Shown: one piece after another, positions 10,086 through 64,000 of the stretch
How the letters are laid out: each line of letters starts with the position of its first letter
Position numbering within the stretch: position 1 is the first letter of the stretch
Notes under the pieces: generated by a model
Seen by the model: only the letters and a program-made list of their open reading frames with translations
The model's database searches: none
What the model was told of the DNA's origin: nothing
Made by a program: the position numbers and the translations under genes
DNA from: a virus
UHGV virus genome: UHGV-0209617
DNA length: 64,000 nucleotides
Direction: 5' to 3' (one strand)

Positions 10086-10380
10086 GATTGGTTGCCTCAT
10101 ATTCCAGATACATTAAGAAACATTATGCGTATTTTTAGCAATGGGGCAGAATAGGGCATAACGGGGCATTTTAGAGCATTTCAGGAAAGGAAAATGGCAT
10201 GAATAAGATTTTGTTTATCTGCCACGGCAGCGTATAAGGATAGAGTCGATAAACCGCATGGCTACGGGACTTTTGCAACGGTTAAATGATATTCATATAC
10301 TGAAAGCATACCGTTTATGCTGGGTCTTGTATATTCTATTGTGAAACGGTTACATTGAATTATTAAACGATACATATACA

Positions 10381-12642: not shown

Positions 12643-14298
12643 ATGATTAAGGAGGTAACGGAGATGGTTGCGAAAAATTATGGTGTTGTTTACACACCGA
12701 ATAGACTGGCTGAGTTCGCAGCAGAACTTTTATATAGAGAGGCAGCAGAAACTAATACAGAAATAAAGTCGGTATTGGATCCTGCGTGTGGCGAATGCGC
12801 ATTGCTATGTGCTGCAAAGAAATATTTGAATGGTAATGTGAAATATTTGGGAATTGATGTCGATAAAGAAGCAATAATGAATGTTGAGGATGATTTTGAA
12901 ATTCTTTATAATGATTCAATTCTTCCGCGAAATGTAAAAAAACAGACGGCAGAATATTGGAAGAGCAAGATGCCAGTAATATCTGCTATAATTGCAAATC
13001 CACCGTGGAGTTCCGAAAAAATATATGTGCGAGAAGAATTGCAGAGTGCCGGTTTCTCGTTGACCACAGGACAATATGATAGCTTTGTGCTATTTATTGA
13101 GTTGGCATATAATCTGCTTGATGATGGAGGATACTTTTCGTTTATTATCCCCGATTCGTTATTTGATGCACAAAACGAAAAACTAAGAAGATTTTTGACT
13201 GAAAAGATGCAAATCAAAGTGATTGCCAGACTTGGAGAGAAGATTTTTGAAGAAGTGAATAGAGCAACTACTGTTATTGTTTGCAGAAAAGAAAAGCCAG
13301 TCAAAGATTCTGTCACCCACTGTTTCAGACTTACTACGGAAGAAAGAAGAAAGTTTTTGAATTCGAATCAGAGTTTGTTAAACTTTTACAACGAAGATGT
13401 GCATGATGTGTTGCAGGGGCGATTTGCTGAAAACGCTGCCTGTAACTTTGACGTTGATACGCGCACTGATGAAGAGGCATTGTTGGCTAAAATTAAGAAG
13501 CAGTCTATAAGTTGGGAGGATATATTCATTTTTGGTCGAGGTGTTGAGATATCCAAAACAGGAAAGGTCGTATTTTGTCCTTCGTGTGGTTATGCCCAAG
13601 GGTATAAAAAATCACAAATGGCTGAAGGAAAAAAAGAATGTACGAACTGTGGCAGTGAGATATCGGTTACTACGGCAAGTGTTCAAAATGTTATTTCACA
13701 AAGTCAAACGCCACAGACTGTTCAGATATATGTTGGAGAGAATGTTCGGAGATATGGAATAACAGGAGAATGCTATATCAAACCCAACATTCCCGGAATC
13801 AATTATAAAAATCGTGCGATGTACAACCCACCAAAACTGTTGGTGAGAAAGACTGGACTTGGAATATATGCATCGATTGATTATACGGGAAGCATGACAA
13901 GTCAGGCTGTATATATTTTGAAATTTAAAAACAGTCAACATAAGGCTCCGTTGGAATATTATCTGGCATTGCTTAACTCACGAGTGGTCTACTATTTTTA
14001 TTTGAAAGTATATGGAGAAAATGAATGGAAGTCCCATCCGTACTTTACGAAACAGATTATTTATTCTCTGCCTATTAGAGAATATGAGGATAGTGAGTTA
14101 GATAAACAGATCATTAAAGTGGCATCGGAATTGGCGCATAAATATGAATATGTCAAGGATGTTCAGCTTGAGAAGTTGGTAATGAAAAAGTATGGTCTGT
14201 CAGAGACCGAAAGCAATATGGTTTATGGTGAGATGAATCGTCTGCCTGACTTGAGTGCGATTAACAATATGAAAGTTGAGGTGGAAGCGAATGTATAG
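12643..14298 (+). CDS. N6-adenine DNA methyltransferase, gamma-class order (motif I then NPPW), with zinc ribbon and C-terminal recognition domain; probable start ATG at 12664
   Basis: VLDPACGECALL (motif I-like), IIANPPWS (motif IV), CPSCG...CTNCG zinc ribbon; AAGGAGGT 8 nt before the ATG at 12664. Confidence 0.85.
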   Translation: MIKEVTEMVAKNYGVVYTPNRLAEFAAELLYREAAETNTEIKSVLDPACGECALLCAAKKYLNGNVKYLGIDVDKEAIMNVEDDFEILYNDSILPRNVKKQTAEYWKSKMPVISAIIANPPWSSEKIYVREELQSAGFSLTTGQYDSFVLFIELAYNLLDDGGYFSFIIPDSLFDAQNEKLRRFLTEKMQIKVIARLGEKIFEEVNRATTVIVCRKEKPVKDSVTHCFRLTTEERRKFLNSNQSLLNFYNEDVHDVLQGRFAENAACNFDVDTRTDEEALLAKIKKQSISWEDIFIFGRGVEISKTGKVVFCPSCGYAQGYKKSQMAEGKKECTNCGSEISVTTASVQNVISQSQTPQTVQIYVGENVRRYGITGECYIKPNIPGINYKNRAMYNPPKLLVRKTGLGIYASIDYTGSMTSQAVYILKFKNSQHKAPLEYYLALLNSRVVYYFYLKVYGENEWKSHPYFTKQIIYSLPIREYEDSELDKQIIKVASELAHKYEYVKDVQLEKLVMKKYGLSETESNMVYGEMNRLPDLSAINNMKVEVEANV

Positions 14299-15349
14299 AT
14301 ATATAGGAAACAAATCAAAGCTGACTCCATACATTCTTGATAGGGTGGAACAGCTTATTGGAAAAACAGGAATTGTTGCTGACATTATGGCTGGAACAGG
14401 AACTGTGGCATTAGAATTGAGAAAAGCAGGTTATTCGGTTATCGCATCTGATGTAATGACCTATTCGTACCATCATTTGATGGTTAATCTTTGCTTAGAT
14501 TCAGCTCCTTCTTTTTCTGGGCTTGTGAATCATGGAGCAATAGGCAAGAATGAGGTGGATGCATATGGTGCAATCCTGACTTATTTAAATTGCATTGAAC
14601 CCAAAGAAGGTTTTTTCTTCAAGGAATTTTCTCCGGGTGGAACACCGCAGAATGGTTGCGACCCGAGAAAATATTTCACTACGGAAAATGCAAAGAAAAT
14701 TGATGCGATTAGAGAAAAAATAAATGAGTGGATTGATAATGGATATGTGAGCAAAGCTGAAGAATCGCTTTTAAAACATACTCTTATTATGGCAGTAAAC
14801 GAGGTTGCCAATATATCTGGAACTTACGGATATTTTTTGGCTGATTTCAAAAAGAATGCCAATGCACAGATTGATTTAAAACCTGTGGAATTTTGTTCTG
14901 TGAATTCAACTGGTCACATGGTAAAATTGGGATTTGCTGAAAATTTAGCTGCAACAATTACAGTTGATTTGTGCTACATCGACCCTCCGTATATGAAGAG
15001 ACAGTATGCTGCGAATTATCATATTCTGGAAACCATTGCACGAGGAGATTTCCCTGATGCTGTTGGTAAAAGTGGCTTGCGTGACTGGTGGGAGCAGCAC
15101 TCTAAATTGTGTACCAAAACACGAGGATTACAATCGTTTGAAAAGATATTAGGTGATATGCATTGCCCGAAATTTCTGATTAGCTACAGTGAGGATGGTT
15201 TGTTTACGCTGGGGCAATTAGAAGAATGTTTTAGCAAGTTTGGAACTGTTGACGTTCAAGAAATTGATTACAATCGATTTAGAAGCAATGATAGCAAGTT
15301 GCCTAAAAAACTGAAGGAATATTTGATTTCTATAGAAAGGCAGGTATAA
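14291..15349 (+). CDS. D12-class (Dam-like, alpha-order) N6-adenine DNA methyltransferase
   Basis: RYIGNKSKL N-terminal motif, ADIMAGTGTV (motif I), CYIDPPYM (motif IV); ATG overlaps the upstream stop (ATGTATAG). Confidence 0.85.
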   Translation: MYRYIGNKSKLTPYILDRVEQLIGKTGIVADIMAGTGTVALELRKAGYSVIASDVMTYSYHHLMVNLCLDSAPSFSGLVNHGAIGKNEVDAYGAILTYLNCIEPKEGFFFKEFSPGGTPQNGCDPRKYFTTENAKKIDAIREKINEWIDNGYVSKAEESLLKHTLIMAVNEVANISGTYGYFLADFKKNANAQIDLKPVEFCSVNSTGHMVKLGFAENLAATITVDLCYIDPPYMKRQYAANYHILETIARGDFPDAVGKSGLRDWWEQHSKLCTKTRGLQSFEKILGDMHCPKFLISYSEDGLFTLGQLEECFSKFGTVDVQEIDYNRFRSNDSKLPKKLKEYLISIERQV

Positions 15350-15353
15350 GTGA

Positions 15354-17024
15354 ATGGAGTGCATTGAAAGAATATTTTACAGAAAGATTAATCCTTCTGA
15401 TTTCAAAAAGTTGTATGATATTGACAAACCAGAAGGTGGCGGTGGTCAGACATACTTGGAAGCCGCTGGTATTTCAAATGAAAAAATCGTTGATTTCCTT
15501 TCCTATGCGGAGGTTACAAACAGTCCTTTGCCAGATGAAACAAGGTCTGTTTATACATTCAATGCCTATGTTTTGGGCGATTCAAAGGGTAAATGTTCGT
15601 TTGTAGAATTTGCACCTCGCAAAGGAAGAAATAACTATCGTATAAGCCGTCAGAACATGAAATATAAACATCCGGCATGGAGTTTGGATAATGGATTTCC
15701 CGAACCATCAAAAGGTGATGATGGCGAATACACATCTGCAGGCGATTTTGTGGGAATCATTGATAATCTTGTTATTCTTATCATAAGAACTACAAATCGG
15801 CGTTATTATGCAGGTTTTGTAAATATAGCGACAATGCCAGAGAACTGGCCACACAATATTGGCTTAGAGGGCATTTTTAGTGGTGAACGCAGAGATGTAC
15901 TAAAAATGGATGCGTATAAACTACAGTTTGTTAATGATGCCTGTAATCCATTCGGTGATTATGTCCCAACAATCGAAGAATGTAATCGAGCGACTACTGG
16001 TTGCAATGTGCTTTTGTACGGAGTTCCCGGAGCAGGAAAGAGTTGGACAATTGAACACGAATATTGTGCCGATGAAGGGTGTATGGAGCGATTGGTTTTC
16101 CATCCGGATTATATGTATTCGGATTTCGTTGGACAAATTTTGCCTGTAGTAAGGGACGATGACAAGGTTCGTTATGAGTTTACGCCGGGTCCGTTTACCA
16201 AATTATTAAAAAAAGCATATTGGAATACAGAACAGTCTTTTTACCTTATAATAGAAGAAATAAATCGTGGTAATGCACCAGCGATATTCGGTGAAATATT
16301 TCAGCTTTTGGATAGAAAAGATGAAGACGAAATAGATGAAAATAGGGAGATTCTCTACAAAAAAGGCACAAGTGAGTATGGAATAACAAATGCCAATATT
16401 GCACGAATCGTTTATGGCGATGAAAACCATAAGGTTCGAATTCCTGCAAATATGTCTATTTTGGGTACAATGAATACTTCTGACCAAAATGTTTTTACAT
16501 TAGACACAGCATTTCAGAGAAGATGGATTATGAGAATGATTCCGAATTCATTTGATAACCATAAGTTCGCAGACAAGAAGATTTTGGATACTGATATTTC
16601 CTGGAGACAGTTCTGTGAAGCAATTAATGAGGAAATTTTGCGTAGAAACAACATCACATCTTCTGAGGATAAGCGACTTGGGGCATATTTTATCTCGGCT
16701 TCGGATTTGGAGATGAAACCAATCACAGACGGGATGAGCGAAAAAGAAAAAATCCAAGTGGAGCATAGCAACAGCAGATTTGCAGAAAAAGTATTGAAAT
16801 ATTTATGGGATGATGCTTTCAAATTTTCCCATCAAGATACATTTAACACAAGACAGTTTGGTAGTCTTGAAAAAGTTATCGAAGGCTTTATGAATCCTGC
16901 CAAGCCTAAAAATGAGCGTTTTCGTGTATTCAATGAGAACCTTCGTAAAATGATTTTGGATGGAGTAACAGCAGAATCAAACGAGGTTTCTGATGATGAC
17001 AGCGAAGGCTCACAGGAATCTTAA
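15354..17024 (+). CDS. McrB-like AAA+ GTPase restriction subunit with an N-terminal domain of about 200 aa that I cannot assign
   Basis: LLYGVPGAGKSW (Walker A), LIIEEINRGNAPAIFGEIFQLLDR (McrB-type IDEINRAN-like motif), ILGTMNTSDQN (NTxD-type motif). Confidence 0.85.
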   Translation: MECIERIFYRKINPSDFKKLYDIDKPEGGGGQTYLEAAGISNEKIVDFLSYAEVTNSPLPDETRSVYTFNAYVLGDSKGKCSFVEFAPRKGRNNYRISRQNMKYKHPAWSLDNGFPEPSKGDDGEYTSAGDFVGIIDNLVILIIRTTNRRYYAGFVNIATMPENWPHNIGLEGIFSGERRDVLKMDAYKLQFVNDACNPFGDYVPTIEECNRATTGCNVLLYGVPGAGKSWTIEHEYCADEGCMERLVFHPDYMYSDFVGQILPVVRDDDKVRYEFTPGPFTKLLKKAYWNTEQSFYLIIEEINRGNAPAIFGEIFQLLDRKDEDEIDENREILYKKGTSEYGITNANIARIVYGDENHKVRIPANMSILGTMNTSDQNVFTLDTAFQRRWIMRMIPNSFDNHKFADKKILDTDISWRQFCEAINEEILRRNNITSSEDKRLGAYFISASDLEMKPITDGMSEKEKIQVEHSNSRFAEKVLKYLWDDAFKFSHQDTFNTRQFGSLEKVIEGFMNPAKPKNERFRVFNENLRKMILDGVTAESNEVSDDDSEGSQES

Positions 17025-17040
17025 AGCGAGGTGAGCGACA

Positions 17041-18321
17041 TTGGATTTAGGCTTAAACTTAAAAGTTAAATGTCATGTGAATAAAAATGGTGATGGCGAT
17101 AGGTTTGTCGGGATTAAGGCTGATGCTAATCAAGCAATGGTCTATTTTCCAATGGGGTATCGCCTGCCAGACAATGAAGAAGATATTAGGGATGATATTC
17201 TAAAATTGATTTCTGTATTAGCTGAGTTTACGGATTCAAAAGACAAGGTATTGGCTATGCAGAAATTTGAAGCACCACAGTCTGTGAATTTTCCAATCAA
17301 TGCCTATATGAATATTATCCGATACTATTTGGAACAACGTTCATATTACACAGAAAAGGATCCTATTCTAAAGACGAGTGACAGAGGAAAAATCGACTTT
17401 GCAGCATCTTTGCGTAGAAATGTTAGCTTTTTTCAAGAAGATGGAACTCCGTTTTTTGATAAATATACAGTAAAAGGGTCAACTCCTAATGATAAAAATT
17501 TAATAACTATGATTCACAAATACTGTGTGCATGAAAGTTTTGCTCAGATGGGTTGGCTGTTTATGCCGGATGTCCCACAAGATCCACATATTGAACGAAA
17601 CATTCCGCTTTTCCTCAGTGTACTGAAGAAAAAATTGGCAGTCACGCATCTTGAAAAGGATATTCTGCTATTTGAAGCAATGATTTCTATGCTGGAATAT
17701 TTGGATGAGAAAAGTGACGATAAACAATACTATTTTGGAACAGATAGATTTGAATATGTGTGGGAAAAACTGATAGATGCAGTGTTTGGCATAAAAGAAA
17801 AGAATGATTATTTTCCACGAACCTCTTGGAAACTAAACTATGGTGACCAACGAAGAAATTATGCATTAGAGCCGGACACCATAATGCTTTGTAATGGAAA
17901 AATCTATGTCATTGATGCAAAGTATTATAGATACGGTGTAACCGGTACACCTTCGCATTTGCCGGAATCATCATCTATCAACAAGCAGATTACATATGGT
18001 GAGTACATATATAATCATAAGAAATTTAAGGATGTATATGGTGATGATGTTCCTGTGTATAACGCATTCCTTATGCCGTATAACAAACAGGATAATCCAT
18101 TTCATATCAATGAGTATTTCGCCAATATTGGTGAGGCTGATAGTGACTGGAAATATGGCAATCATAATTATGAACGGGTGCAAGGAATTGTAGTTGATAT
18201 TCGTTTCTTGATGAACAATTACTATGGTTCGCACAAGAGTAAAATTATTAAGATGGCGAAGCTCATCGAGGAAGCCCTGCAGGAAAATGCAGATACGCTT
18301 CCAGAAGAAAAGACTGAATAA
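17041..18321 (+). CDS. McrC-like PD-(D/E)xK nuclease subunit (TTG start)
   Basis: ALEPDTIMLCNGKIYVIDAKYY gives PD...D-x-K; position immediately after the McrB-like gene; GAGGTGA 7 nt before the TTG. Confidence 0.75.
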   Translation: MDLGLNLKVKCHVNKNGDGDRFVGIKADANQAMVYFPMGYRLPDNEEDIRDDILKLISVLAEFTDSKDKVLAMQKFEAPQSVNFPINAYMNIIRYYLEQRSYYTEKDPILKTSDRGKIDFAASLRRNVSFFQEDGTPFFDKYTVKGSTPNDKNLITMIHKYCVHESFAQMGWLFMPDVPQDPHIERNIPLFLSVLKKKLAVTHLEKDILLFEAMISMLEYLDEKSDDKQYYFGTDRFEYVWEKLIDAVFGIKEKNDYFPRTSWKLNYGDQRRNYALEPDTIMLCNGKIYVIDAKYYRYGVTGTPSHLPESSSINKQITYGEYIYNHKKFKDVYGDDVPVYNAFLMPYNKQDNPFHINEYFANIGEADSDWKYGNHNYERVQGIVVDIRFLMNNYYGSHKSKIIKMAKLIEEALQENADTLPEEKTE

Positions 18322-18362
18322 AAAATCCGCAAGCAGTGATTATGCTGTTTGCGGATTTTTTA
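18321..18362. terminator. Bidirectional rho-independent terminator between the R-M operon and the convergent CGNR gene
   Basis: A-run, ATCCGCAAGCAG / CTGTTTGCGGAT stem, then TTTTTT. Confidence 0.65.
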
Positions 18363-19544
18363 TTTGCCCTTTTGAACTTTGATGCGATGGGAACGTTGAT
18401 TATTTGCGTTTCTACAGTTACTGCAACAATATTTATTTCTACTATTGGATGTCTTTACTAAGAAATATTTATGGCAAGAAGGATTGGCACACTTTCTATA
18501 TATTTCAGATCCGGGTTTCATGTAGAAAATAGAAAAATATAATGCAGAAAGCAATGATGGTGCCTTCCACGACGGTTCCAGTGAATTGGGACTGTAGAAA
18601 GGTTTTATACTTCTGGTATTATGATTTATTTCCCCACTTAAAACGAGTCGTGCGATAAGAGTAGCAGCCTCTTTTAATGGACTGTTAAATTTGCTGAAAT
18701 CTGGACTACTATAGTATTCAATGCCGCCCTCGAAAGTTACAGCTTTTATTACACCAACAGAATGCATATAGTGAAACAGGAATTCAACCATTAGTCGGAG
18801 CTTCTTGGATTGAATATTGTTATTCTTGTAAGCAATAGTAACCTGGCGATACAGCGTATCATTAATTCCAGGATAATCGTATGTAAATGTTTCTCCGTTT
18901 GAAATATCATCATATTCATCAGCATTTAATTCATATGAAGGAGCATAAATCATGTCTTTTACGGTAATAGATTCTGTTTCAGAGGATTGCTGTAGTGAAT
19001 CGATAGAGGCTTGATTTCTGATGCTATCATGAAATGGATGCCGATAGGTTGAATAAGTAATTCGTGCAGTGCCATTAAGCGTAACTTGTGTCCCAAGAAG
19101 CAAATACAAAGTTAAATGTAGAATCTGTTCATAATCAAGTGATGGTTTTTCCACTGCGGCCATAAGGAGAACTGTAGCCTTTATTCGATTCAAGACTTCT
19201 ACAAGCGCTACTATATCAATTTCCGTTCCTTCGGGCGAAATAGGAAGTAGATAACCATGTTCCTCGAAAAAACCAAGGACCTTTTTTACATTGGTTGCCG
19301 GAAGCGATATCAGAGAACCGAGAACATTTTTATTTTGAAGTGAACCGTGTGGAGTCGTTAAACATAAACCTCGGCTTCCGCTAAAGGCATAATTTATAAT
19401 TTCATCATTCACGGGATAGACTGTTAATATTTTATGCGCCTGCCCGTCCGTCTTTAAGACTTCTTCTATTCTAAATGTACATTTTTTGCAACTCAAAGAA
19501 AAATAATCGTTGCTAAGATTGAAAAAATTGTCTAACTCAGTCAT
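18360..19544 (-). CDS. Protein with C-terminal CGNR-type zinc finger; N-terminal ~340 aa unassigned
   Basis: C-terminus CANPSCHKYFLVKTSNSRNKYCCSNCRNANNQRSHRIK fits the CGNR zinc-finger pattern (C-x2-C ... C-x2-C-R). Confidence 0.65.
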   Translation of the reverse strand: MTELDNFFNLSNDYFSLSCKKCTFRIEEVLKTDGQAHKILTVYPVNDEIINYAFSGSRGLCLTTPHGSLQNKNVLGSLISLPATNVKKVLGFFEEHGYLLPISPEGTEIDIVALVEVLNRIKATVLLMAAVEKPSLDYEQILHLTLYLLLGTQVTLNGTARITYSTYRHPFHDSIRNQASIDSLQQSSETESITVKDMIYAPSYELNADEYDDISNGETFTYDYPGINDTLYRQVTIAYKNNNIQSKKLRLMVEFLFHYMHSVGVIKAVTFEGGIEYYSSPDFSKFNSPLKEAATLIARLVLSGEINHNTRSIKPFYSPNSLEPSWKAPSLLSALYFSIFYMKPGSEIYRKCANPSCHKYFLVKTSNSRNKYCCSNCRNANNQRSHRIKVQKGK

Positions 19545-32222: not shown

Positions 32223-32325
32223 CTGCCAAACTATAGTATAATGTAAACTGTGAAAAGAATATAATCATAGAGCCATTGGAGAGCAATCTTCGATGGCTTT
32301 TCTTATGCCCGAAAGAGGTGAAGCC

Positions 32326-32697
32326 ATGCCAAGGAAACCAAAGCGTCCCTGCAGATACAGCGGATGCCCGAAGCTGACAGAAGGATACTATTGCGATGAA
32401 CATCAGAAGCTAATGGACAGGCAGTACGATAAATACCGCCGCCCGGCTGAAGCCAAGAAAAGGTATGGCTATCAGTGGAGAAAGATAAGAGCTGCGGTAC
32501 TGGCAAGAGAGCCGTTCTGTCTGGAGTGCCGAAAGGCTGGAAGAATAACCAAGGCCACAGAGGTGCATCATGCTGTGCCATTAGACCACGGCGGTACCAA
32601 CGAGGATAGTAATTTGATACCGCTCTGCAAGCCGTGTCACTCCCGCATAACTGTGGAGATGGGGGATAGATGGCATAAGAAAAAGCTGCCCATATGA
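32326..32697 (+). CDS. HNH endonuclease (packaging-associated)
   Basis: CxxC...EVHHAVPLDHGG...CKPCH; AGGTGA SD. Confidence 0.8.
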   Translation: MPRKPKRPCRYSGCPKLTEGYYCDEHQKLMDRQYDKYRRPAEAKKRYGYQWRKIRAAVLAREPFCLECRKAGRITKATEVHHAVPLDHGGTNEDSNLIPLCKPCHSRITVEMGDRWHKKKLPI

Positions 32698-33129: not shown

Positions 33130-33252
33130 ATAAGCATAAAAATAACGGGAGGGGGTGTCTGATTCTCTACAGATGTACAAATGTAGACCGGGGGGCTCCC
33201 TTCACGCGCAAAAAAGGCGATTTCAAAAGGGTAAAAGAAGGGAGGAGTTGGA

Positions 33253-33804
33253 TTGCCAACAAAATCCAACAACACCGGCGGCCGTGGAGGTAAAAGACTA
33301 GGTGCCGGACGCAAGAAAAAAGCACTGGCAGACAAGCTGGAAACAAATAATCCAGGTGGCCGCCCGCTGGTGGTTTTAGACATACCAGAATTTGAAGGAA
33401 TGGATATGCCACCGCCCAGGGAATTTCTATCCGCCCAGCAGCGTGATGGAAGTGACCTGCAAGCAAATGAGATATATGAGGAAACATGGGAGTGGCTGAA
33501 GAAAATCGGCATGGCAGGAAAGGTAAGCAAGCAGCTTCTTGAACGCTATGCAATGTGCGCTGCCCGCTGGGTGCAGTGCGAGGAAATGACCAGCCGAATG
33601 GGTATGCTTTCTAAGCACCCTACAACGGGAAAACCTATCCCAAGTCCATTCATAAACATCGGGATAAACTACATGAATCAGGCTAACAGGCTGTGGGGAG
33701 AAATCTTCCAGCTTGTTAAGGAGAACTGCTCGACAGGCTATGAGGGAGCCAATCCAACAGACGATGTGATGGAGCGGCTGCTCAGAGCAAGGAGCGGAAG
33801 GTAA
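33253..33804 (+). CDS. Phage terminase small subunit (P27-like), TTG start
   Basis: Basic glycine-rich N-terminus NTGGRGGKRLGAGRKKK and position before terL; GGAGGAG SD. Confidence 0.75.
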   Translation: MPTKSNNTGGRGGKRLGAGRKKKALADKLETNNPGGRPLVVLDIPEFEGMDMPPPREFLSAQQRDGSDLQANEIYEETWEWLKKIGMAGKVSKQLLERYAMCAARWVQCEEMTSRMGMLSKHPTTGKPIPSPFINIGINYMNQANRLWGEIFQLVKENCSTGYEGANPTDDVMERLLRARSGR

Positions 33805-33849
33805 TATGCTAGTGCAGAATTGTACTGGCTATTTTTTATGGAGGCAGCA

Positions 33850-35127
33850 ATGGCGAATACAGAACGATTTGAAAAAGTACATATAGACAAGCTGGTGCCC
33901 TATGCCAGAAATGCCAGGACACACAGCAAGGAGCAGGTCATGGAACTGAGAGCGTCCTTAAGGGAGTTCGGATTCGTTACTCCCGTCCTGGTAGATGAAA
34001 ACTATACAATCCTCGCGGGGCACGGACGTGTCAGGGCTGCAAAGGAAGAAGGCATTACCGAGGTGCCATGTGTATTTGCGAACCAGCTGACGGATGCACA
34101 GAAGAAAGCCTATATCCTAGCAGATAACCGTCTTGCGCTTAATGCGGGATGGGATAACGAGATGCTGGCAGTTGAACTGGCTGATCTGCAGGGCGAGGCT
34201 TTTGATATCGGCCTTTTGGGATTTGATGACAAGGAGCTGGAGAAGCTCCTTGGCAATAACGATGAGGCAGAGGATGATGATTTCGATGTTGATGCCGAAC
34301 TTCAAAAACCATGCTTCAGCCGCCCAGGAGATATCTGGAAACTCGGCAGGCACAAGGTTATCTGTGGTGACAGCACTGACCCGAATGTTTACACTTCTCT
34401 TCTTGGAGATGTGAAAGTAAACCTAGTCTGCACTGACCCGCCGTATTTTGTAGCCTTCGAGAATAAATCAGGGAAAATCCAGAATGACAATCTGGGTGAT
34501 GAGGAAGGATATAAATTCCTCAAATCCGCTATGGATAATTTCCATAATGCTATGGCAAAGGATGCCAGCATTTATGTGTTTTATGCTACATCCAAAGCCA
34601 GGGTATTCCATGATGCTTTTGAGGATGCAGGGTTTAAGGTTGGAGCAGGACTTGTCTGGAAGAAGGATCGCCTGGTGCTGACCCGCACGGATTGGAAGTA
34701 CATCCATGAGCCAATTATCTTCGGCTGGCGTAAGGACGGAAAGCATATCTGGTACGGAGATCAGAAGCAGACTACTGTATTTGAGTTTTCCCGTATCAAG
34801 GATTCTGGCAAGGATGGATACGGTCATCCTACCAGCAAGCCTGTACCTCTCATTGCTTATCTCATTAAGCAGTGCACCCAGACTAACGGTATTGTGCTGG
34901 ATGGCTTCTTGGGTTCTGCCAGCACCCTTATTGCCTGTGAGCAGCTTGAAAGAAACTGTTATGGCGTAGAGCTTGAGCCGAAGTTCGTGGATGTGGCTGT
35001 AAACAGATACATCGCAGCCCATGATGGCTCCGCCCAGGATGTTGTCCTTATCCGAGATGGAAAAGAATACAGCTACGAAGAGTCCCAAGCGATGATGGAG
35101 GATAGTGCTGAAAATGACGAACAATAA
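33850..35127 (+). CDS. ParB-like nuclease domain fused to a DNA methyltransferase (N6-adenine or N4-cytosine)
   Basis: N-terminal ParB-N pattern (VPYARNARTHSKEQV...GHGRVRAAKEEG); C-terminal LVCTDPPYF and HPTSKPVPL methyltransferase motifs. Confidence 0.85.
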   Translation: MANTERFEKVHIDKLVPYARNARTHSKEQVMELRASLREFGFVTPVLVDENYTILAGHGRVRAAKEEGITEVPCVFANQLTDAQKKAYILADNRLALNAGWDNEMLAVELADLQGEAFDIGLLGFDDKELEKLLGNNDEAEDDDFDVDAELQKPCFSRPGDIWKLGRHKVICGDSTDPNVYTSLLGDVKVNLVCTDPPYFVAFENKSGKIQNDNLGDEEGYKFLKSAMDNFHNAMAKDASIYVFYATSKARVFHDAFEDAGFKVGAGLVWKKDRLVLTRTDWKYIHEPIIFGWRKDGKHIWYGDQKQTTVFEFSRIKDSGKDGYGHPTSKPVPLIAYLIKQCTQTNGIVLDGFLGSASTLIACEQLERNCYGVELEPKFVDVAVNRYIAAHDGSAQDVVLIRDGKEYSYEESQAMMEDSAENDEQ

Positions 35128-35596: not shown

Positions 35597-36298
35597 ATGA
35601 TTTACAAGCTGAAAATGGAAAACGGCACCCGCAAGGAGCTGGCAAAGGAAATCGGAAAGATTATCGCCCAGGAAGCAAAGTACATGGGAGTTCCAAGCTG
35701 CGGCTACAGGATCGGGGACATGGTCTTGGATAAGGATTGGAACCTTGAGGTTCCGGATGGCATGGATGCGCGGGAGCTTCTGATGGCACTAACAGACCTT
35801 GGCTTCTACGAGCCGAAGGAAGAAATACCCGCAAAGACAGAAGAAGAGCCAACACAGGCGGCCACAGCCCCTCTTACGGGTCTTGTGGTAAAGATTCCGC
35901 TGAGTGCCATGACCACGGAAGCAATCATAAACCTTACGGATTTGCTTATCGCAAAGGACAAGCTGCTCTGCCACGCATTTGGCATAGAAAGCCTTGACCT
36001 TATCCGAAACGAGGAGAACATAGAGTTCAGATGGTTTGAAGGGATGGATATCGGAGCGGAGGAAGCCAATGCTTACATGACCTTTATTTCCAAGCTCTGC
36101 GATTTGGCAAGAACCCTCAAGAGGGTAAACGGTAAGGAAAAAGAAGTGCCGAATGAGAAATACGCCTTCAGATGTTTCCTGCTGAGACTTGGCTTTGTCG
36201 GCAAGGAATACAAGGAGCAGAGAAAAATCCTTTTAAGTAAGCTCAGCGGTTCATCCGCATTCAGGGATGGGAGGAAAAAAGATGAAGTATCCGAATAA
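35597..36298 (+). CDS. Protein whose C-terminal ~100 aa are homologous to the C-terminal region of the adjacent amidoligase; lacks the amidoligase N-terminal catalytic part
   Basis: IEFRWFEGMDIGAEEANAYMTF...NEKYAFRCFLLRLGFVGKEYKEQRKILLSKLSGSSAFR versus VEFRLFNSTLHAGELKAYIQF...[38 protein letters not shown]. Confidence 0.7.
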   Translation: MIYKLKMENGTRKELAKEIGKIIAQEAKYMGVPSCGYRIGDMVLDKDWNLEVPDGMDARELLMALTDLGFYEPKEEIPAKTEEEPTQAATAPLTGLVVKIPLSAMTTEAIINLTDLLIAKDKLLCHAFGIESLDLIRNEENIEFRWFEGMDIGAEEANAYMTFISKLCDLARTLKRVNGKEKEVPNEKYAFRCFLLRLGFVGKEYKEQRKILLSKLSGSSAFRDGRKKDEVSE

Positions 36299-36500
36299 GG
36301 AATTGCTGGAAAGTCTCAGAAAGGAATACCCAAATGGGTGCAGGGTGGAGCTGGTGCAGATGGATGATGCACAGGCACCGCCGCCCGGCACGAAGGGAAC
36401 GGTAAAGCACGTGGATGATATCGGCACCATCCATATCAGCTGGGATACCGGCTCAGGACTTGGGGCGGTTTACGGTGAAGATATCATCAGAAAGGTCTAA
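36282..36500 (+). CDS. DUF4314-like small phage protein
   Basis: MKYPNKELLESLRKEYPNGCRVELVQMDD...GTKGTVKHVDDIGTIHISWDTGSGLGAVYGEDIIRKV. Confidence 0.6.
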   Translation: MKYPNKELLESLRKEYPNGCRVELVQMDDAQAPPPGTKGTVKHVDDIGTIHISWDTGSGLGAVYGEDIIRKV

Positions 36501-36575
36501 TGGAAAGGCGGGGATAAAACCCCGCCAGCCCAGTAAAATAGTGTAAAAATAATCCATAAATCTCGCATAAATGAC

Positions 36576-36604
36576 TTGATAATAATACAGATGTACGGTA
36601 ATAT
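36576..36604 (+). promoter_or_regulatory. Near-consensus sigma-A promoter (TTGATA, 17 bp, TAATAT) upstream of the amidoligase gene
   Basis: Hexamers and spacing read directly; the same architecture and flanking sequence recur at 38144-38172. Confidence 0.6.
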
Positions 36605-36653
36605 ACACACAACAAAAGGGAACACCCCACCAAGAGAAAGCGAGGAAAACAAA

Positions 36654-37541
36654 ATGGATTTAAGAGCACAGACCTTCGGAGTAGAGATTGAGATGACCGG
36701 CCTTACAAGAAACAGGGCCGCAAAGGTAATCGCCGCATACTTCGGAACGGAGGCAACCTACTTCGGAGGCGGATACGATGAGCACCACGCAAAGGACAGC
36801 AAGGGCAGAATCTGGAAGGCCATGAGCGATTCAAGCATCAGGGCAGAAAAGAAGGACGGCTCCTACGCAAGCGACCTTTACAAGACCGAGGTGGTAACCC
36901 CAATCCTCAGATACGAGGACATTGAAGACCTACAGGAAATCCTGAGAAAGCTCAGAAAGGCAGGGGCGATGGTAAACAGCAGCACAGGGATTCACATCCA
37001 CATCGGAGCGGAGAATTTCACCCCGGCTACCCTTTGCAACCTTCTGAAGAACATCCGAAGCAAGGAGGACATTCTTTACAGAGCCATTCAGGTCAAGGAA
37101 AACCGCGCAAGGTACTGCAGAAAAACAAACCAGAAGCTCATCGAGATGATTGAGGCACACCGCCCCAAGACAAAGGAGCAGCTTGCAGACCTTTGGTATG
37201 CAGAAGCACCATACGGAAGAAACAGGCATTACAACGACAGCAGATACCACGGACTTAACCTCCACGCATACTTCACTAAGGGAACGGTCGAGTTCAGGCT
37301 TTTCAACAGCACCCTCCACGCAGGCGAATTGAAAGCCTACATACAGTTCTGCATGGCGGTTACAGCAAAGGCCATAAACACCAAGAAGGCAAGCGCGAAG
37401 CCAAGCATCAGCGACAACGAAAAATACACTTTCAGATGCTGGCTCCTCCGCCTGGGCCTTAACGGAGAAGAATTCAAGACCTGCAGAACCCACCTTTTGA
37501 AGCACCTCGAAGGAAACAGCGCCTGGAGGCACCTTTCCTAA
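36654..37541 (+). CDS. Amidoligase-family enzyme (phage-associated amidoligase)
   Basis: N-terminal FGVEIEMTG and overall pattern consistent with the Amidoligase_2 family; GGCT-like gene follows. Confidence 0.7.
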   Translation: MDLRAQTFGVEIEMTGLTRNRAAKVIAAYFGTEATYFGGGYDEHHAKDSKGRIWKAMSDSSIRAEKKDGSYASDLYKTEVVTPILRYEDIEDLQEILRKLRKAGAMVNSSTGIHIHIGAENFTPATLCNLLKNIRSKEDILYRAIQVKENRARYCRKTNQKLIEMIEAHRPKTKEQLADLWYAEAPYGRNRHYNDSRYHGLNLHAYFTKGTVEFRLFNSTLHAGELKAYIQFCMAVTAKAINTKKASAKPSISDNEKYTFRCWLLRLGLNGEEFKTCRTHLLKHLEGNSAWRHLS

Positions 37542-37638
37542 AACAAACCGGCCTACCAGCCCCGAAAGGGGCCTTTCGGTGGTAGAAGCACCTAGCTTCT
37601 GAATAAACCGATTTGCTTTAGGAAGGGAGTCTTCAACA

Positions 37639-38097
37639 ATGAAAAGAAAAATCTATCTGGCCTACGGAAGCAACATGAGCCTTTTGCAGATGTACCACCG
37701 TTGCCCTGATGCAGAACCGATTGGCAAGGGCATCATCAAGGATTACCGCCTGATGTTTAAGGGAAGTAAGAGTGGCAACTATGCGACCATCGAATACGAG
37801 GAAGGACGGCAGGTGCCTGTGGTAGCCTGGGCAATCAGTGAAAGGGATGAAAAATGCCTTGACCGCTATGAAGGATTTCCGAGCTTTTATGTGAAGGACA
37901 CCATCGCATTTGAATATATCGGTGATCGCCCAGGAAGAAGGATGAAGGATGAGGGCATGGTTTATGTGATGCCGCCAGATGAGACTGTTCTGGGGCTTCC
38001 AAGTGGTCACTACATGGATGTCCTTCTTGAAGGCTACCATCGCTTCGGATTTAATTCCAGAATCCTTTGGGAAGCCTACGAATACAGCGATGAGTGA
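37639..38097 (+). CDS. Gamma-glutamylcyclotransferase-like (GGCT/AIG2-like) protein
   Basis: N-terminal YLAYGSNMS motif typical of the GGCT fold; GGAAGGGAG SD. Confidence 0.75.
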   Translation: MKRKIYLAYGSNMSLLQMYHRCPDAEPIGKGIIKDYRLMFKGSKSGNYATIEYEEGRQVPVVAWAISERDEKCLDRYEGFPSFYVKDTIAFEYIGDRPGRRMKDEGMVYVMPPDETVLGLPSGHYMDVLLEGYHRFGFNSRILWEAYEYSDE

Positions 38098-38562: not shown

Positions 38563-40170
38563 ATGGCAATAAGGAAACTGAAAAAATACATACCGACAAA
38601 ATTCATGTCTGAAGACAGCCATTATGATAAGGGGGCGGCTGACTATGCCGTAGCATTTATTGAAGCCTTATGCCATACCAAGGGAACTTGGGCAGGTAAG
38701 CCTTTTGAGCTAATCGATTGGCAGGAACAGATTATTCGTGACCTTTTTGGTATCCTAAAGCCAAATGGATATAGGCAGTTTAATACAGCCTATGTTGAAA
38801 TACCCAAAAAGCAAGGAAAATCTGAGCTGGCAGCGGCCGTTGCAATCCTTTTAACCTGCGGTGATGGTGAGGAACGTGCGGAGGTTTATGGCTGTGCTGC
38901 AGACCGGCAACAGGCATCCATTGTTTTTGATGTTGCTGCGGATATGGTCAGTATGTGTCCTGCTTTAGCCAAGCGCGTAAAAATACAGAAATCTATGAAG
39001 CGCATGATATATCTTCCTACGAACAGCTTCTACCAGGTGCTTTCGGCAGAGGCCTATTCAAAGCATGGCTTCAATATCCATGGTGTTATCTTTGATGAGC
39101 TTCATACCCAGCCAGACCGCAAGCTGTATGATGTAATGACCAAAGGCTCCGGCGATGCAAGAATGCAGCCGATGTATTTTAATATAACTACAGCAGGGAC
39201 GGATACTCATTCCATATGCTACGAAATACATCAGAAGGCAAAGGATATTATTGCTGGGCGGAAGATTGATACAACCTTCTATCCTGTGATTTATGGTGCG
39301 GATGAAGGAGAGGATTGGACTTCTCCAGAAGTGTGGAAGAAGGCAAATCCGTCTCTTGGCATTACTGTTGGCATGGATAAGGTTGAAGTTGCTTGTGAGT
39401 CTGCAAGGCAGAATCCAGGGGAAGAAAATGCTTTTCGCCAACTTCGTCTTAACCAATGGGTAAAGCAGTCGGTTCGTTGGATGCCTATGGAAAAATGGGA
39501 TGAGTGCAGCTTCAAAGTTAACCCTGATGACCTAGAAGGACGCGTATGCTATGGAGGTCTTGACCTATCCAGCACCACAGATATAACAGCCTTTGTATTG
39601 GTGTTTCCTCCGGAGGATGAGGAGGATAAATATCATATACTGCCTTATTTCTGGATACCGGAGGAAACAATGGATCTTCGTGTAAAGCGTGACCATGTGC
39701 CCTATGATATCTGGCATAAGCAGGGATTCCTTGAAACCACCGAAGGCAATGTAGTCCACTATGGCTACATCGAGAAATTCATTGAATCCCTCGGTGAAAA
39801 ATATAATATCCGTGAGATTGCCTTTGATAGATGGGGTGCGACACAGATGGTGCAGAATCTTGAGGGCATGGGATTTACTGTTGTTCCCTTTGGACAAGGT
39901 TACAAGGATATGAGTCCGCCAACCAAGGAGCTGATGAAGCTGACCCTTGAAAAGAAACTGGCTCATGGCGGTCATCCAGTTCTGAGGTGGATGGCAGACA
40001 ATATCTTCATCCGAAGGGATCCCGCTGGGAACATCAAGGCAGACAAAGAAAAGTCCACAGAGAAGATTGACGGTGTCATAGCCACCATAATGGGGCTGGA
40101 CAGAGCAATTCGCTGTGGATTGAATTCTGGAGATTCCGTTTATGATGGGCGAGGAATTTTGTTAATATAA
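38563..40170 (+). CDS. Phage terminase large subunit (intact)
   Basis: 536-aa ORF; nuclease-domain C-terminus matches the fragments at 1-267 and 986-1203; preceded by CCGCC/GGCGG hairpin plus T-run at 38523-38543. Confidence 0.9.
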   Translation: MAIRKLKKYIPTKFMSEDSHYDKGAADYAVAFIEALCHTKGTWAGKPFELIDWQEQIIRDLFGILKPNGYRQFNTAYVEIPKKQGKSELAAAVAILLTCGDGEERAEVYGCAADRQQASIVFDVAADMVSMCPALAKRVKIQKSMKRMIYLPTNSFYQVLSAEAYSKHGFNIHGVIFDELHTQPDRKLYDVMTKGSGDARMQPMYFNITTAGTDTHSICYEIHQKAKDIIAGRKIDTTFYPVIYGADEGEDWTSPEVWKKANPSLGITVGMDKVEVACESARQNPGEENAFRQLRLNQWVKQSVRWMPMEKWDECSFKVNPDDLEGRVCYGGLDLSSTTDITAFVLVFPPEDEEDKYHILPYFWIPEETMDLRVKRDHVPYDIWHKQGFLETTEGNVVHYGYIEKFIESLGEKYNIREIAFDRWGATQMVQNLEGMGFTVVPFGQGYKDMSPPTKELMKLTLEKKLAHGGHPVLRWMADNIFIRRDPAGNIKADKEKSTEKIDGVIATIMGLDRAIRCGLNSGDSVYDGRGILLI

Positions 40171-62526: not shown

Positions 62527-62751
62527 ATGCAGAAATCAGATCTTGGGGAACGGGAATACCTTAGCAAGAAGTATACTGCCGTCTTCTTCGGACTCAGTCC
62601 CAGGCGGCTTGAGCGATTCCTCAAAGCAGATGACTATGATTTTGTTGTGTATTATAAGAAAAGAACACTGATATTAAGGGAGGCCTTCAACAGATATCTC
62701 TGGAGGAATCCTGATGTAAGGGAGATGTTGAAACGTGGCAAGACGAGGTGA
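62527..62751 (+). CDS. Second excisionase-like HTH protein
   Basis: YLSKKYTAVFFGLSPRRLERFLK; start chosen at the ATG 8 nt after GGAGG. Confidence 0.55.
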   Translation: MQKSDLGEREYLSKKYTAVFFGLSPRRLERFLKADDYDFVVYYKKRTLILREAFNRYLWRNPDVREMLKRGKTR

Positions 62752-64000
62752 AGTAAGAAGGGATTCAAGGAACAGGCTGTTAAGGATAGGTGAATCCCAG
62801 CGTAAAGATGGCAAGTACATGTTCAAATACCATGTGGATGGCAGACCGTATTTCGTCACCAGCTGGAGACTGCTGCCTTCAGATAGGCAGCCAAAAGGTA
62901 CAAAGCCTACCCTTTCACTGAGGGAATTGGAAAAGAAGGTAGGAAGGGAAATCGACCTGCAGATGAGCCTTGAACTCAGGAACTGCACGGTTAAGGATTT
63001 GGTTGAGCGGTATTTGGCTACCAGGATTAATGCAAAGCCGAATACCAAGATGGGGTATAATACTGTAAAGAATGTACTGGAAAGTGAGCCCTTTTATCAT
63101 AGGAAGATAAAAACAATCAAGGTATCTGATGCAAAGATATTCCTCATCAAGTTGCAGGAAAATGGCAGGAAGGCCAGCACGGTGAAATGCATCAGAGGGG
63201 TTCTCCGCCCGGCTTTTCAGATGGCTGTAGATGATGATATGCTGGTCAAGAATCCTTTTGCTTTCGAGCTGGCAGGTGTCCTGGTAAATGACTCAGTCAC
63301 AAGGGAGGCTGTCAGCAGGAGGGAAATGAAAAAGTTCTTGCAGTTTGTCAGGAACGATGATTGCTACTGCAAATACTATGAGGCAGTACATATACTGTTC
63401 CATACGGGAATGCGAATATCTGAATTCTGCGGTCTGACGATAAATGACCTTGATATGGAGAACAGAATCATAGATATAAACCATCAGCTGGTGCGTGTGG
63501 GAATGAAGCTGATAATACAGACCACAAAGACCAACGCAGGCACCAGAAGGATTCCGATGTCTGAGGATGTATATGAAATGTTCAAGAGCATATTGGCTAA
63601 CAGGCCAACAGGCATAGATGAGAAAGCCGTTGATGGGTATAAGGGGTTCCTCTACCTTGATAATGCCGGACTGCCACTTGTGGCAATGCACTGGTCAAAC
63701 AGGTTCAGGCATATGGTCGGGCGCTACAATGACATTTACAAAGAACAGATGCCTAAAATCACTCCTCACGTCTGCCGCCATACCTACTGCAGCAACATGG
63801 CAAAATCGGGAATGCATCCAAAGATCCTGCAGTACCTTATGGGGCATTCGGACATTGGTGTGACGCTCAATACATATACCCACTTAGGGCTTGAGGACGC
63901 CCAGGGCGAGATGGACAGACTGAAGGATGCCCAACAGGAGATTGACAAGGGCAAGGTAAGGGAACTGCCACCAACCAAGGCTCAATTCAAAGTAGTATAA
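62735..64000 (+). CDS. int: Tyrosine site-specific integrase (Tn916 Int-like), GTG start, stop codon at the window end
   Basis: N-terminal RRDSRNRLLRIGESQRKDGKYMFKY resembles the Tn916 Int arm-binding domain; C-terminal ...HVCRHTYCSNMAKSG...LMGHSDIGVTLNTYTH carries the recombinase R...H-x-x-R...Y region. Confidence 0.85.
   Translation: MARRGEVRRDSRNRLLRIGESQRKDGKYMFKYHVDGRPYFVTSWRLLPSDRQPKGTKPTLSLRELEKKVGREIDLQMSLELRNCTVKDLVERYLATRINAKPNTKMGYNTVKNVLESEPFYHRKIKTIKVSDAKIFLIKLQENGRKASTVKCIRGVLRPAFQMAVDDDMLVKNPFAFELAGVLVNDSVTREAVSRREMKKFLQFVRNDDCYCKYYEAVHILFHTGMRISEFCGLTINDLDMENRIIDINHQLVRVGMKLIIQTTKTNAGTRRIPMSEDVYEMFKSILANRPTGIDEKAVDGYKGFLYLDNAGLPLVAMHWSNRFRHMVGRYNDIYKEQMPKITPHVCRHTYCSNMAKSGMHPKILQYLMGHSDIGVTLNTYTHLGLEDAQGEMDRLKDAQQEIDKGKVRELPPTKAQFKVV

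Follow-up and report, generated by a model that had tools for sequence, protein, structure and literature searches.

A ParB-fold gene upstream of terL, on the same strand, defines the ParB-Tls locus (Iyer et al., 2013), and such loci are known homes of hypermodification enzymes. In the papers that discuss it, the concept is a comparative-genomics prediction, including the proposed coupling of modification to packaging (PMC4738411; PMC6536676), and our literature search found no ParB-Tls member for which coupling of methylation to packaging had been demonstrated. A survey of Paracoccus prophages recorded 36 ParB-fused m6A/m4C methyltransferases, all of them upstream of terminase genes (PMC6536676), and fusions of ParB folds to N6_N4 domains are enriched in prophages (PMC12704722). 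Among individual phages, Orf32 of phi1207.3, a Streptococcus pyogenes prophage (AY657002), has the same two domains as the protein described here (ParB-like at residues 5-93 and DNA methylase at 189-381) and is 45% identical to it, while the ParB-MTase of Javan191 is 65% identical. The Javan streptococcal prophages and the Ca. Heliusvirales gut phages carry ParB-MTases as well, and their place upstream of the terminase is shared.

The window analysed here, the 64,000-nucleotide stretch of UHGV virus genome UHGV-0209617, carries a gene of this kind in which ParB fold and modifying enzyme form a single fusion protein.

33850..35127, plus strand: ParB-MTase fusion gene, 425 aa, with ParB_N, then a linker, then N6_N4_Mtase
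aa 6-88 (nt 33865-34113), plus strand: ParB_N domain (Pfam PF02195)
after ParB_N to about aa 165, plus strand: helical, acidic linker
aa 190-384 (nt 34417-35001), plus strand: beta-class N6_N4 methyltransferase domain (Pfam PF01555)
aa 195-199: TDPPY, catalytic motif
aa 326-331: HPTSKP, motif in the methyltransferase domain
aa 351-359: DGFLGSAST, SAM-binding motif

Both halves are recognized by Pfam, ParB_N with 38.2 bits against a cutoff of 26.3 (E 1.5e-9) and N6_N4_Mtase with 107.2 bits against 26.7 (E 1.5e-30), the latter match taking in profile positions 1-220 of 221. The PHROGs family phrog_498, "DNA methyltransferase", covers residues 2-423 (E 2e-167) and the PADLOC model MTase_II PDLC03229 the full protein (E 1.4e-130); among NCBIfam models nothing rose above any curated cutoff. 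Matches of this strength mean that the assignment is not due to chance, and the fusion that the first-pass annotation had placed in a prophage is confirmed. For a phage the gene is nothing unusual, and it is very widespread: the identical 425-aa product was found in 19 public contigs, full-length homologues occur in 301 phage records, the databases hold more than 8000 relatives, and few DNA-modification genes of phages are as common as fusions of a ParB fold to a methyltransferase. The open reading frame spans 33820 (TTG) to 35127, and the true start is the ATG at 33850, which is preceded by GGAGG with a 5-nt spacer. The ribosome-binding site is a good one, 45 nt separate the terS stop from this ATG, and the gene shares its strand with all late genes. 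A weak hairpin followed by a T-run lies between the two genes (33808-33829) and could lower read-through from terS into the fusion gene. A promoter scan found 8 sites against 9.4 expected from shuffled sequence, and thus no excess.

The methyltransferase half shows the beta permutation, with the catalytic TDPPY N-terminal to the SAM-binding motif. TDPPY, HPxxKP and DxFxGSxST are invariant across 28 homologues of 38-86% identity; motif I reads FLGSA and not the textbook FxGxG, and the replacement of its last G by A is likewise invariant throughout the family. The enzyme is predicted to be an amino-methyltransferase of the beta class and to be catalytically competent. Its closest solved relatives in sequence and fold are the N6-adenine enzymes M1.HpyAVI, CcrM, M.BceJIV and MboIIA, the first three as matches to residues ~166-390, and N4-cytosine enzymes are also present among the fold matches; going solely by DPPY and the nearest solved structures, the target base is most likely N6-adenine. 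M1.HpyAVI (5hek/5hfj), CcrM (6pbd) and M.BceJIV (8urk) share the catalytic and SAM-binding motifs with the fusion protein, but they are only ~20% identical to it and have no ParB domain, and their recognition sequences are not transferable. The structure model is of moderate quality (pLDDT 68), with low confidence in the loops expected at the DNA. Our literature searches returned no characterised recognition sequence for any ParB-MTase fusion, and papers on Streptococcus equi, C. difficile, P. freudenreichii and E. coli O145 dealt with ParB in unrelated contexts only.

A parallel is offered by M.EcoGII, which is also a prophage-borne beta-class enzyme (DPPY before FxGxG), is silent in the lysogen and is thought to overcome host restriction (PMC5778455). 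It is, however, a sequence-nonspecific protein of 349 aa, whereas the protein described here has a ParB-fold N-terminus; M.EcoGII was considered as a ParB fusion and rejected, as its description gives no additional domain (PMC5778455). The single-strand-specific plasmid enzymes M.EcoGIX and M.BceJIII were also dropped as models, the ParB homologues in that paper being merely neighbouring genes.

The ParB half matches Spo0J, Noc and ParB-CDP by sequence and by fold. Residues N21, R23, G57, H58, R60 and N93 are invariant in the 28 homologues, and invariant residues in both domains indicate that both halves are under purifying selection. Box I (NxR) is retained as N21 and R23; Box II reads GHGRVRAA against GERRxRA, with the second Arg and RAA kept, and Box III reads DN against the EN of ENLQR, both versions being invariant in the family. 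Nucleotide binding by ParB folds is not predictable from sequence, and N6_N4 fusions are not named among the nucleotide binders in the main text of the study concerned (PMC12704722), which makes a nucleotide-gated role no more than a possibility. Pfam detects neither an HTH nor a C-terminal dimerisation domain in the fusion protein, the prophage genes include no parA, and TIGR00180 scores 35, below its cutoff of 58; the fusion protein is not a canonical partition ParB of the ParABS type. A ParB fold that serves a DNA-modifying enzyme and not partition has been described in ParB176, the activator of the phage thymine dioxygenase 5mYOX176, which is required on dsDNA only and whose nucleotide-binding residues were dispensable in the assays used (PMC13229309). 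ParB176, however, is a polypeptide of its own that carries a C-terminal dimerisation domain and acts with a dioxygenase, whereas the ParB fold described here is joined in cis to a methyltransferase.

The neighbours of the fusion gene are those of a packaging module.

32293..32697, plus strand: packaging-module HNH endonuclease, which precedes TerS; related viral contigs also have it ahead of the fusion gene
33253..33804, plus strand: TerS, terminase small subunit (Terminase_4 / phrog_83)
35597..38097, plus strand: cassette between the fusion gene and TerL, which recurs with the fusion gene in relatives
35597-36298, in this cassette: amidoligase-like 233-aa protein
36282-36500, in this cassette: DUF4314
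36654-37541, in this cassette: Amidoligase_2
37639-38097, in this cassette: GGACT/AIG2-like cyclotransferase
38563..40170, plus strand: TerL, terminase large subunit

The order in the window is TerS, ParB-MTase, five to six genes and TerL. Among 80 IMG/VR contigs with relatives 50-76% identical to the fusion protein, all 30 loci that extend 6 kb or more past the gene have TerL downstream on that strand, and of the 62 that reach 1.5 kb or more ahead of it, 60 have TerS upstream. The module order is matched in Javan191, phi1207.3, PV036412 and PV036454, with the difference that in phi1207.3 the fusion gene stands before TerS and is followed by a C5 methyltransferase, whereas here it stands between TerS and TerL and is followed by the amidoligase cassette. 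The fusion gene thus sits in a conserved HNH-TerS-ParB-MTase-...-TerL module, which is a ParB-Tls DNA-modification locus.

We consider it likely that the product is a late-expressed orphan adenine methyltransferase that marks progeny genomes, ahead of packaging or in its course, as a protection from the next host's restriction, and that a LlaJI-type restriction operon on the same phage (see below) is separate cargo. After induction, the fusion gene would be transcribed with terS and the other late genes, and it is probably silent in the lysogen. Newly replicated phage DNA would then be methylated at the enzyme's own motif before or while it is packaged, and the genome would arrive in the next cell pre-modified and resistant to the restriction systems there. 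Protection against restriction had already been suggested by the first-pass annotation, and we infer, likewise, that this standard reading of a phage orphan methyltransferase is the most likely one. Its ParB fold, which has no partition HTH or dimerisation domain, is probably a DNA- or nucleotide-dependent tether or activator that would make the enzyme more active on double-stranded phage DNA or link it to the packaging machinery.

The same neighbourhood allows a second reading, in which methylation is mainly a regulatory or packaging signal that marks cos or pac, or times terminase/HNH cleavage or late transcription, with the ParB fold targeting the enzyme to the packaging region. Dam methylation acts at the P1 pac site and provides a precedent. 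The gene's place between HNH-TerS and TerL is invariable, and the ParB-Tls literature proposes a coupling of modification to packaging (PMC4738411; PMC6536676). However, neither a repeated site nor a parS-like element came to light, the protein has no ParB HTH domain able to read a specific site, and the loci of relatives carry extra, unrelated methyltransferases (C5 in phi1207.3 and Javan191), which better fit an anti-restriction arsenal; we regard this reading as rather unlikely. A further and unlikely reading takes the ParB fold for a nucleotide-gated clamp or activator that licenses the methyltransferase only on DNA engaged by HNH-TerS-TerL. Dense methylation at a relaxed motif would then be confined to phage DNA and spare the host chromosome, possibly with the help of the tightly linked DUF4314 and amidoligase proteins. 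If true, it would be the first case in which a ParB-fold switch is shown to couple DNA modification to packaging.

The first-pass annotation had set the fusion gene against a host island encoding a methylation-dependent, LlaJI-like restriction operon about 15 kb away. The operon is there, 15.5 kb upstream of the fusion gene, and consists of four genes, M1-M2-R1-R2; its setting proved to be different, and the mode of action ascribed to it is not supported.

10199..10229, plus strand: attL, the orphaned 5' end (ATGAATAAGATTTTGTTTATC plus core TGCCACGGCA) of a host low-molecular-weight phosphatase gene
12664..18321, plus strand: prophage-borne LlaJI-type R-M operon, four genes, GC 0.374
12664-14298, plus strand: M1, gamma-class N6A methyltransferase with TaqI_C domain (N6_Mtase/Eco57I/TaqI_C)
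14291-15349, plus strand: M2, D12-class N6A methyltransferase
15354-17024, plus strand: R1, McrB-like AAA_5 motor (AAA_5 E 1.5e-11)
17041-18321, plus strand: R2, RE_LlaJI (PF09563) nuclease (E 2.1e-28)
18360..19544, minus strand: 394-aa protein with C-terminal CGNR-type zinc finger, convergent with R2
62267-62458: Xis, beside the integrase
62735..64000, plus strand: Tn916-type tyrosine integrase, prophage right end

At the left junction, TGCCACGGCA (10220-10229 of the window) is followed by GCGTATAAGG, with prophage DNA beginning at 10230; the right junction, attR, lies ~630 bp past the window end (L018 11897-11906), and the uninterrupted phosphatase target gene, the empty site, is present in an Anaerovibrio MAG (L026). 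The att core of 10 bp lies within the 5' end of the phosphatase gene and occurs once in the window. A direct-repeat search of the DNA right of the integrase against positions 1-21000 gave no shared 14-mer; with a core this short, the site was located through the related genome's empty site instead. The prophage so delimited measures ~54.4 kb, encodes TerS, TerL, portal, capsid and tail genes and an integrase, and is a Heliusvirales/phi1207.3-like temperate siphovirus integrated in an Anaerovibrio chromosome. phi1207.3 has a streptococcal host and serine recombinases, in contrast to the Negativicute host and tyrosine recombinase found here. The same temperate phage also carries an AbiE module and several toxin-antitoxin pairs.

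The operon starts 2.4 kb inside the left end of the prophage and, being within the att boundaries, is low-GC cargo of the same element and not host DNA. The order R1-R2-zinc-finger-replication-ParB-MTase-terminase is common to phi1207.3 and the two Ca. Heliusvirales genomes PV036412 and PV036454, all three of which have the zinc-finger partner beside R2 (Orf15 in phi1207.3). The idea of a host island most likely arose from a drop in GC (0.37 against 0.46) that was taken for host DNA, the true host flank having a GC of 0.43-0.44. An intra-prophage shift was thus probably read as a host boundary, which created a supposed conflict between phage and host that does not exist.

By gene content, R2 with PF09563 and R1 with a McrB-like AAA+ motor after methyltransferases, the operon is of LlaJI type, and the LlaJI (pNP40) and SpyI cassettes likewise have R1 (McrB-like GTPase motor) and R2 (PF09563) downstream of their methyltransferase(s). 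R2 is 38-39% identical to its streptococcal phage homologues. LlaJI has two 5mC methyltransferases and a GACGC site, whereas both operon methyltransferases here are N6-adenine enzymes, so the likeness is confined to the restriction half, and the N-terminal specificity region of R1 is unrelated to that of the LlaJI and SpyI cassettes. Dependence of cleavage on methylation finds no support. LlaJI restricts unmethylated DNA (PMC1459862), PADLOC matches both R1 and R2 best to Type II restriction enzymes (REase_II, E 1e-117 and 1.6e-138), and the overlaps or gaps between the four genes amount to 8, 4 and 16 nt, the two methyltransferases being translationally coupled to R1/R2. R1 resembles McrB in the motor only (residues 191-491, 59.6 bits against a cutoff of 637); with cognate methyltransferases present and the McrB N-domain, the reader, absent, the gene content does not point to a Type IV, McrBC-like system. 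As separate cargo, the operon would protect its carrier through its own two methyltransferases, would act in superinfection defence of the lysogen or in addiction, and would neither threaten nor depend on the fusion enzyme.

That last point bears on the interplay that had been proposed between fusion gene and operon. If the fusion enzyme shared the LlaJI-type specificity, it could shield replicating phage DNA from R1/R2, or its methylation could make or remove sites that R1/R2 sense. Both genes are on one element, all three of the related phages examined that have R1-R2 also have a ParB-MTase, and M1 and M2 might lag behind replication in a lytic burst. The co-occurrence, however, can be put down to the common descent of these phages, whose TerL proteins are 62-81% identical, and the operon already has two coupled methyltransferases of its own. 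Full-length fusions occur in 301 phage records and LlaJI-like R2 homologues in 7, so the gene is conserved in hundreds of cassette-free phages; the R2 count of 0/80 in the IMG/VR loci carries no weight here, as the cassette lies 15.5 kb upstream and the flanks cover 10 kb. Among phages that possess both, conservation of the fusion enzyme contrasts with differing cassette methyltransferases and a differing stretch of ~200 aa at the start of R1. Thus phi1207.3 has an M-R1-R2(LlaJI)-zinc-finger cassette beside its replication module with a C5 methyltransferase (M.SpyI), here there are two N6A methyltransferases, and the fusion enzymes are still 45% identical. A methyl-directed R1/R2 would moreover be suicidal with three methyltransferases on one element, and enzymes of the LlaJI type cut unmethylated DNA. 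An interplay of either kind is improbable.

The cassette between the fusion gene and TerL could also be taken to mean that the methyltransferase is one step of a DNA hypermodification pathway with the amidoligase-like proteins, DUF4314 and the GGACT cyclotransferase. Of 47 related loci in which the whole interval from the MTase to TerL is available, 44 contain DUF4314, 38 amidoligase-like genes and 13 GGACT, and ParB-Tls loci are known to house hypermodification enzymes. However, amidoligase genes are absent from the other 9 of the 47 and from phi1207.3, which has the fusion gene nonetheless, and the linkage may merely reflect a hot spot for cargo. We know of no precedent for Amidoligase_2 or GGACT proteins acting on DNA, and consider such a pathway very unlikely. 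Finally, it is hardly credible that the ParB fold is the main function, as a partition or clamp protein or a "ParB-like nuclease", with a vestigial methyltransferase half: some homologue records are annotated as "ParB-like partition protein" or "ParB-like partition nuclease", but all catalytic and SAM-binding motifs are invariant, the features of a partition ParB are missing as described above, and a phage that integrates does not need a partition system.

Being well bounded and present in at least 24 gut metagenome contigs, this prophage is a reasonable test case for the role of the ParB half in ParB-MTase fusions. Its fusion gene offers nothing beyond what hundreds of other phages have. What the locus does present is one temperate phage that combines a complete restriction system, AbiE and toxin-antitoxin pairs with a separate methyltransferase in its packaging module.

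A single long plus-strand ORF occupies 33820-35127 in the six-frame list, and its ATG at 33850, which follows a GGAGG at a 5-nt spacing and lies 45 nt beyond the terS stop, opens a 425-aa product held identically by 19 public contigs. Pfam places ParB_N at residues 6-88 (E 1.5e-9) and N6_N4_Mtase at residues 190-384 (E 1.5e-30), both above the curated cutoffs, while phrog_498 'DNA methyltransferase' covers residues 2-423 (PHROGs; E 2e-167) and a Type II methyltransferase model spans the full length (PADLOC; E 1.4e-130). ORF, ribosome-binding site and all three profile collections thus agree on the ParB-methyltransferase fusion (ParB-MTase) that the first-pass annotation had placed at 33850-35127. 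Between the terS stop and this ribosome-binding site lies a weak hairpin (33808-33829; 4 G-C among its 9 pairs) with TATTTTTTAT after it; the hairpin could attenuate read-through from terS.

ParB-MTase is a new example of a kind of gene that is both well described and very abundant. A protein search returned at least 8000 relatives, all two-domain, and 1283 of 50,697 phage records contain a match (full-length in 301), with hosts that include Streptococcus, Ruminococcus, Lachnospiraceae, Gordonia and Mycobacterium. The architecture was annotated in 2014 in Orf32 of phage phi1207.3 and has been treated for Wolbachia WO phage and for Paracoccus prophages (PMC6536676); a 2025 survey counts N6_N4 fusions among the most prophage-enriched of the ParB-fold fusions (PMC12704722).

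Across 28 aligned homologues (38-86% identity), TDPPY (195-199), HPxxKP (326-331) and DxFxGSxST (351-359) are invariant, as are the ParB-fold residues N21, R23, G57, H58, R60 and N93. The catalytic motif precedes the SAM-binding motif, which is the order of the beta class. By both sequence and fold, the nearest solved relatives are the N6-adenine enzymes M1.HpyAVI, CcrM, M.BceJIV and MboIIA, with N4-cytosine enzymes ranking lower. The N-terminal domain can be aligned to Spo0J, ParB-CDP and Noc, although its Box II reads GHGRVRAA rather than GERRxRAA and its Box III DN rather than EN. Profile searches found neither an HTH nor a dimerisation domain in the protein, and no parA was found among the prophage genes. 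In an AlphaFold model built from a shallow alignment (mean pLDDT 68), both domain cores are confident and the linker and expected DNA-contact loops are of low confidence.

The gene lies within the packaging module:

Features around ParB-MTase (window positions)
32293-32697, plus: HNH, upstream of TerS
32779-33060 (raw ORF 32779-33180), minus: RelB-like antitoxin, between HNH and TerS
33253-33804, plus: terminase small subunit (TerS)
33850-35127, plus: ParB-MTase
35247-35420, minus: DUF5049
35597-36298, plus: amidoligase-like protein
36282-36500, plus: DUF4314
36654-37541, plus: Amidoligase_2
37639-38097, plus: GGACT cyclotransferase
38221-38400: DUF6900, directly before TerL
38563-40170, plus: terminase large subunit (TerL)
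40231-40844: Phd/YefM-like antitoxin and Fic/Doc toxin (Phd-Doc), inserted between TerL and portal
40890-42167: portal

Among 80 IMG/VR contigs encoding 50-76% identical relatives, with neighbours located by tblastn, each of the 30 loci that extend 6 kb or more downstream has TerL there, on the same strand, and 60 of the 62 that extend 1.5 kb or more upstream have TerS on that side. The HNH-TerS-ParB-MTase-TerL arrangement is the 'ParB-Tls locus' (Iyer et al., 2013, as cited in PMC4738411 and PMC6536676). Methylation by an enzyme so placed might serve as a regulatory or packaging signal, which we consider unlikely. The segment between ParB-MTase and TerL (35597-38097) was compared with 47 complete related viral intervals, where DUF4314 recurs in 44, amidoligase-like genes in 38 and GGACT in 13; we found no function for this tightly linked amidoligase/DUF4314/GGACT cassette. 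No partner toxin gene was seen for the lone RelB-family antitoxin between HNH and TerS. Since phage Javan191 carries DinJ-Doc at the position of Phd-Doc here, the TerL-portal junction looks like a hot spot for cargo.

The boundaries of the prophage were read from a three-way alignment and the raw sequences. ENA contig ERZ28638444 scaffold_39 is 100% identical to the window, and a look-up of the integrase (62735-64000) retrieved the sequence beyond it on the right, where a low-molecular-weight phosphatase (LMWPc) gene lies at a distance of about 600 bp, followed by ordinary chromosomal genes. Querying this phosphatase against one genome per species recovered, at locus L026 of an uncultured Anaerovibrio MAG, a copy with 95% identity. 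L026 runs collinear with the right flank, and the next 79 bp upstream in it match window 10151-10229 at 97%. The site in L026 is empty, with ATGAATAAGATTTTGTTTATC-TGCCACGGCA-ATATTTGCCG in the phosphatase gene. At the left junction its 5' end runs to TGCCACGGCA (10220-10229) and then into GCGTATAAGG; at the right, a phage-supplied substitute promoter and first codons (ATGAGTAAATCTATACTTTTCGTA) precede TGCCACGGCA (11897-11906 of comparison contig L018) and the rest of the gene. Integration targets the first codons of LMWPc at a 10-bp core encoding CHG of the active-site loop, with attL at 10199-10229 and attR at L018 11873-11906, about 610-640 bp past the window end; because the prophage brings a promoter-proximal replacement 5' end, the host gene stays intact. 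The left junction is identical behind three differing left flanks (the window, L011 and L012) and the core occurs once in the window, so the prophage extends from 10230 to ~630 bp beyond the window end, roughly 54.4 kb, and includes the LlaJI-like restriction operon (M1, M2, R1, R2). In all 24 contigs read with the zinc-finger gene that adjoins it, this operon remains attached to the replication module (identity 99.6-100%), and divergence is confined to the left of about 10.2-10.5 kb.

The operon had been assigned to a host island, most likely because its GC (0.374) is low against the phage core (0.463; true host flank 0.43-0.44); att mapping places it inside the prophage, and with that the proposed host-phage conflict falls away. 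The AbiE module at the other prophage end is equally low in GC (0.367). This AbiEi/AbiEii abortive-infection pair (60214-61664, between the lysis genes and xis/int; PADLOC E-values 4e-63 and 2.5e-93) is a second low-GC defence cargo.

Several other observations concern the ends and variants of the prophage. Left of it, amid small minus-strand genes, are three terL/portal-like fragments (7-267, 1012-1203 and 1721-2212), two with 81% identity to the C-terminus of its TerL and one with 65% identity to the N-terminal end of its portal; they are left over from one or more related phages. L011 has a second related integrase gene directly left of attL, so tandem occupancy of the site occurs. The DUF6273 gene at the left end (10566-11384) occurs twice in L011, and in L010 other cargo (DUF8245/Sel1 genes) precedes it, which makes roughly the first kilobase inside attL variable among near-identical prophages. 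The VapE-like primase/helicase (26879-29209; 776 aa), intact here, is split into 549 and 225 aa in L001 and L010, otherwise 99.8-99.9% identical to the window; either a frameshift polymorphism or a fault in assembly may account for the split.

With an 8-nt overlap between M1 and M2 and gaps of 4 nt (M2-R1) and 16 nt (R1-R2), the four genes form one operon. It had been called methylation-dependent, a label that does not fit coupled M1 and M2 both of N6-adenine classes, best PADLOC models for R1 and R2 that are Type II restriction enzymes, and a likeness of R1 to McrB limited to the motor domain. LlaJI itself acts on unmethylated DNA (PMC1459862). By tblastn R2 matches only seven phage records: phi1207.3, its relatives in streptococci, and two genomes of Ca. 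Heliusvirales. The Negativicutes host here fits the host range reported for that order. Phages phi1207.3, PV036412 and PV036454 share with the window the methyltransferase(s), R1, R2, the zinc-finger protein and replication genes (exonuclease, ssDNA-binding protein, polymerase A, primase/helicase, SNF2 helicase), and likewise carry ParB-MTase further along beside the terminase genes; their TerL is 62-81% identical to that of the window. The three differ in which way the replication block points and in the relative order of ParB-MTase and TerS. The zinc-finger protein (394 aa; 18360-19544, minus strand; C-terminal CGNR-type finger), convergent with R2, occurs in the same seven records and one more. 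It accompanies R2 in phi1207.3 (Orf15), PV036412 and PV036454 too, and may be a hitherto unrecognised fifth component or regulator of phage-borne LlaJI-like cassettes.

In these relatives, conservation of R1 is confined to the AAA+ motor, from about residue 175-209 onward. Residues 1 to ~200 (15354-15950) are unrelated, and the partner methyltransferases belong to different classes, that of phi1207.3 being a C5 enzyme. In LlaJI the N-terminal part of R1 is the specificity determinant, and the sequence differences suggest modular exchange of specificity. ParB-MTase stays conserved throughout, which argues against matched specificity of fusion enzyme and cassette and makes it quite improbable that ParB-MTase backs up the phage's own restriction system.

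Participation of ParB-MTase in a hypermodification pathway appears more improbable still, and a ParB-only function least probable of all. The anti-restriction part of the first-pass interpretation survives, shorn of the host-island conflict and the methylation-dependent label. Three precedents support the overall reading given below. M.EcoGII, which a prophage encodes and which is silent during lysogeny, is thought to counter restriction (PMC5778455); the Heliusvirales survey likewise reads its near-core methyltransferase as pre-modifying DNA against restriction; and the phage ParB176 activates a DNA dioxygenase specifically on dsDNA (PMC13229309). The motif, target base and timing of the enzyme, and the role of its ParB half, are inferred. 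The best-supported reading is that ParB-MTase is a putative orphan adenine methyltransferase of the packaging module, which would act late, with the ParB fold as its tether or activator, and would protect progeny DNA from restriction in the next host by modifying it beforehand.
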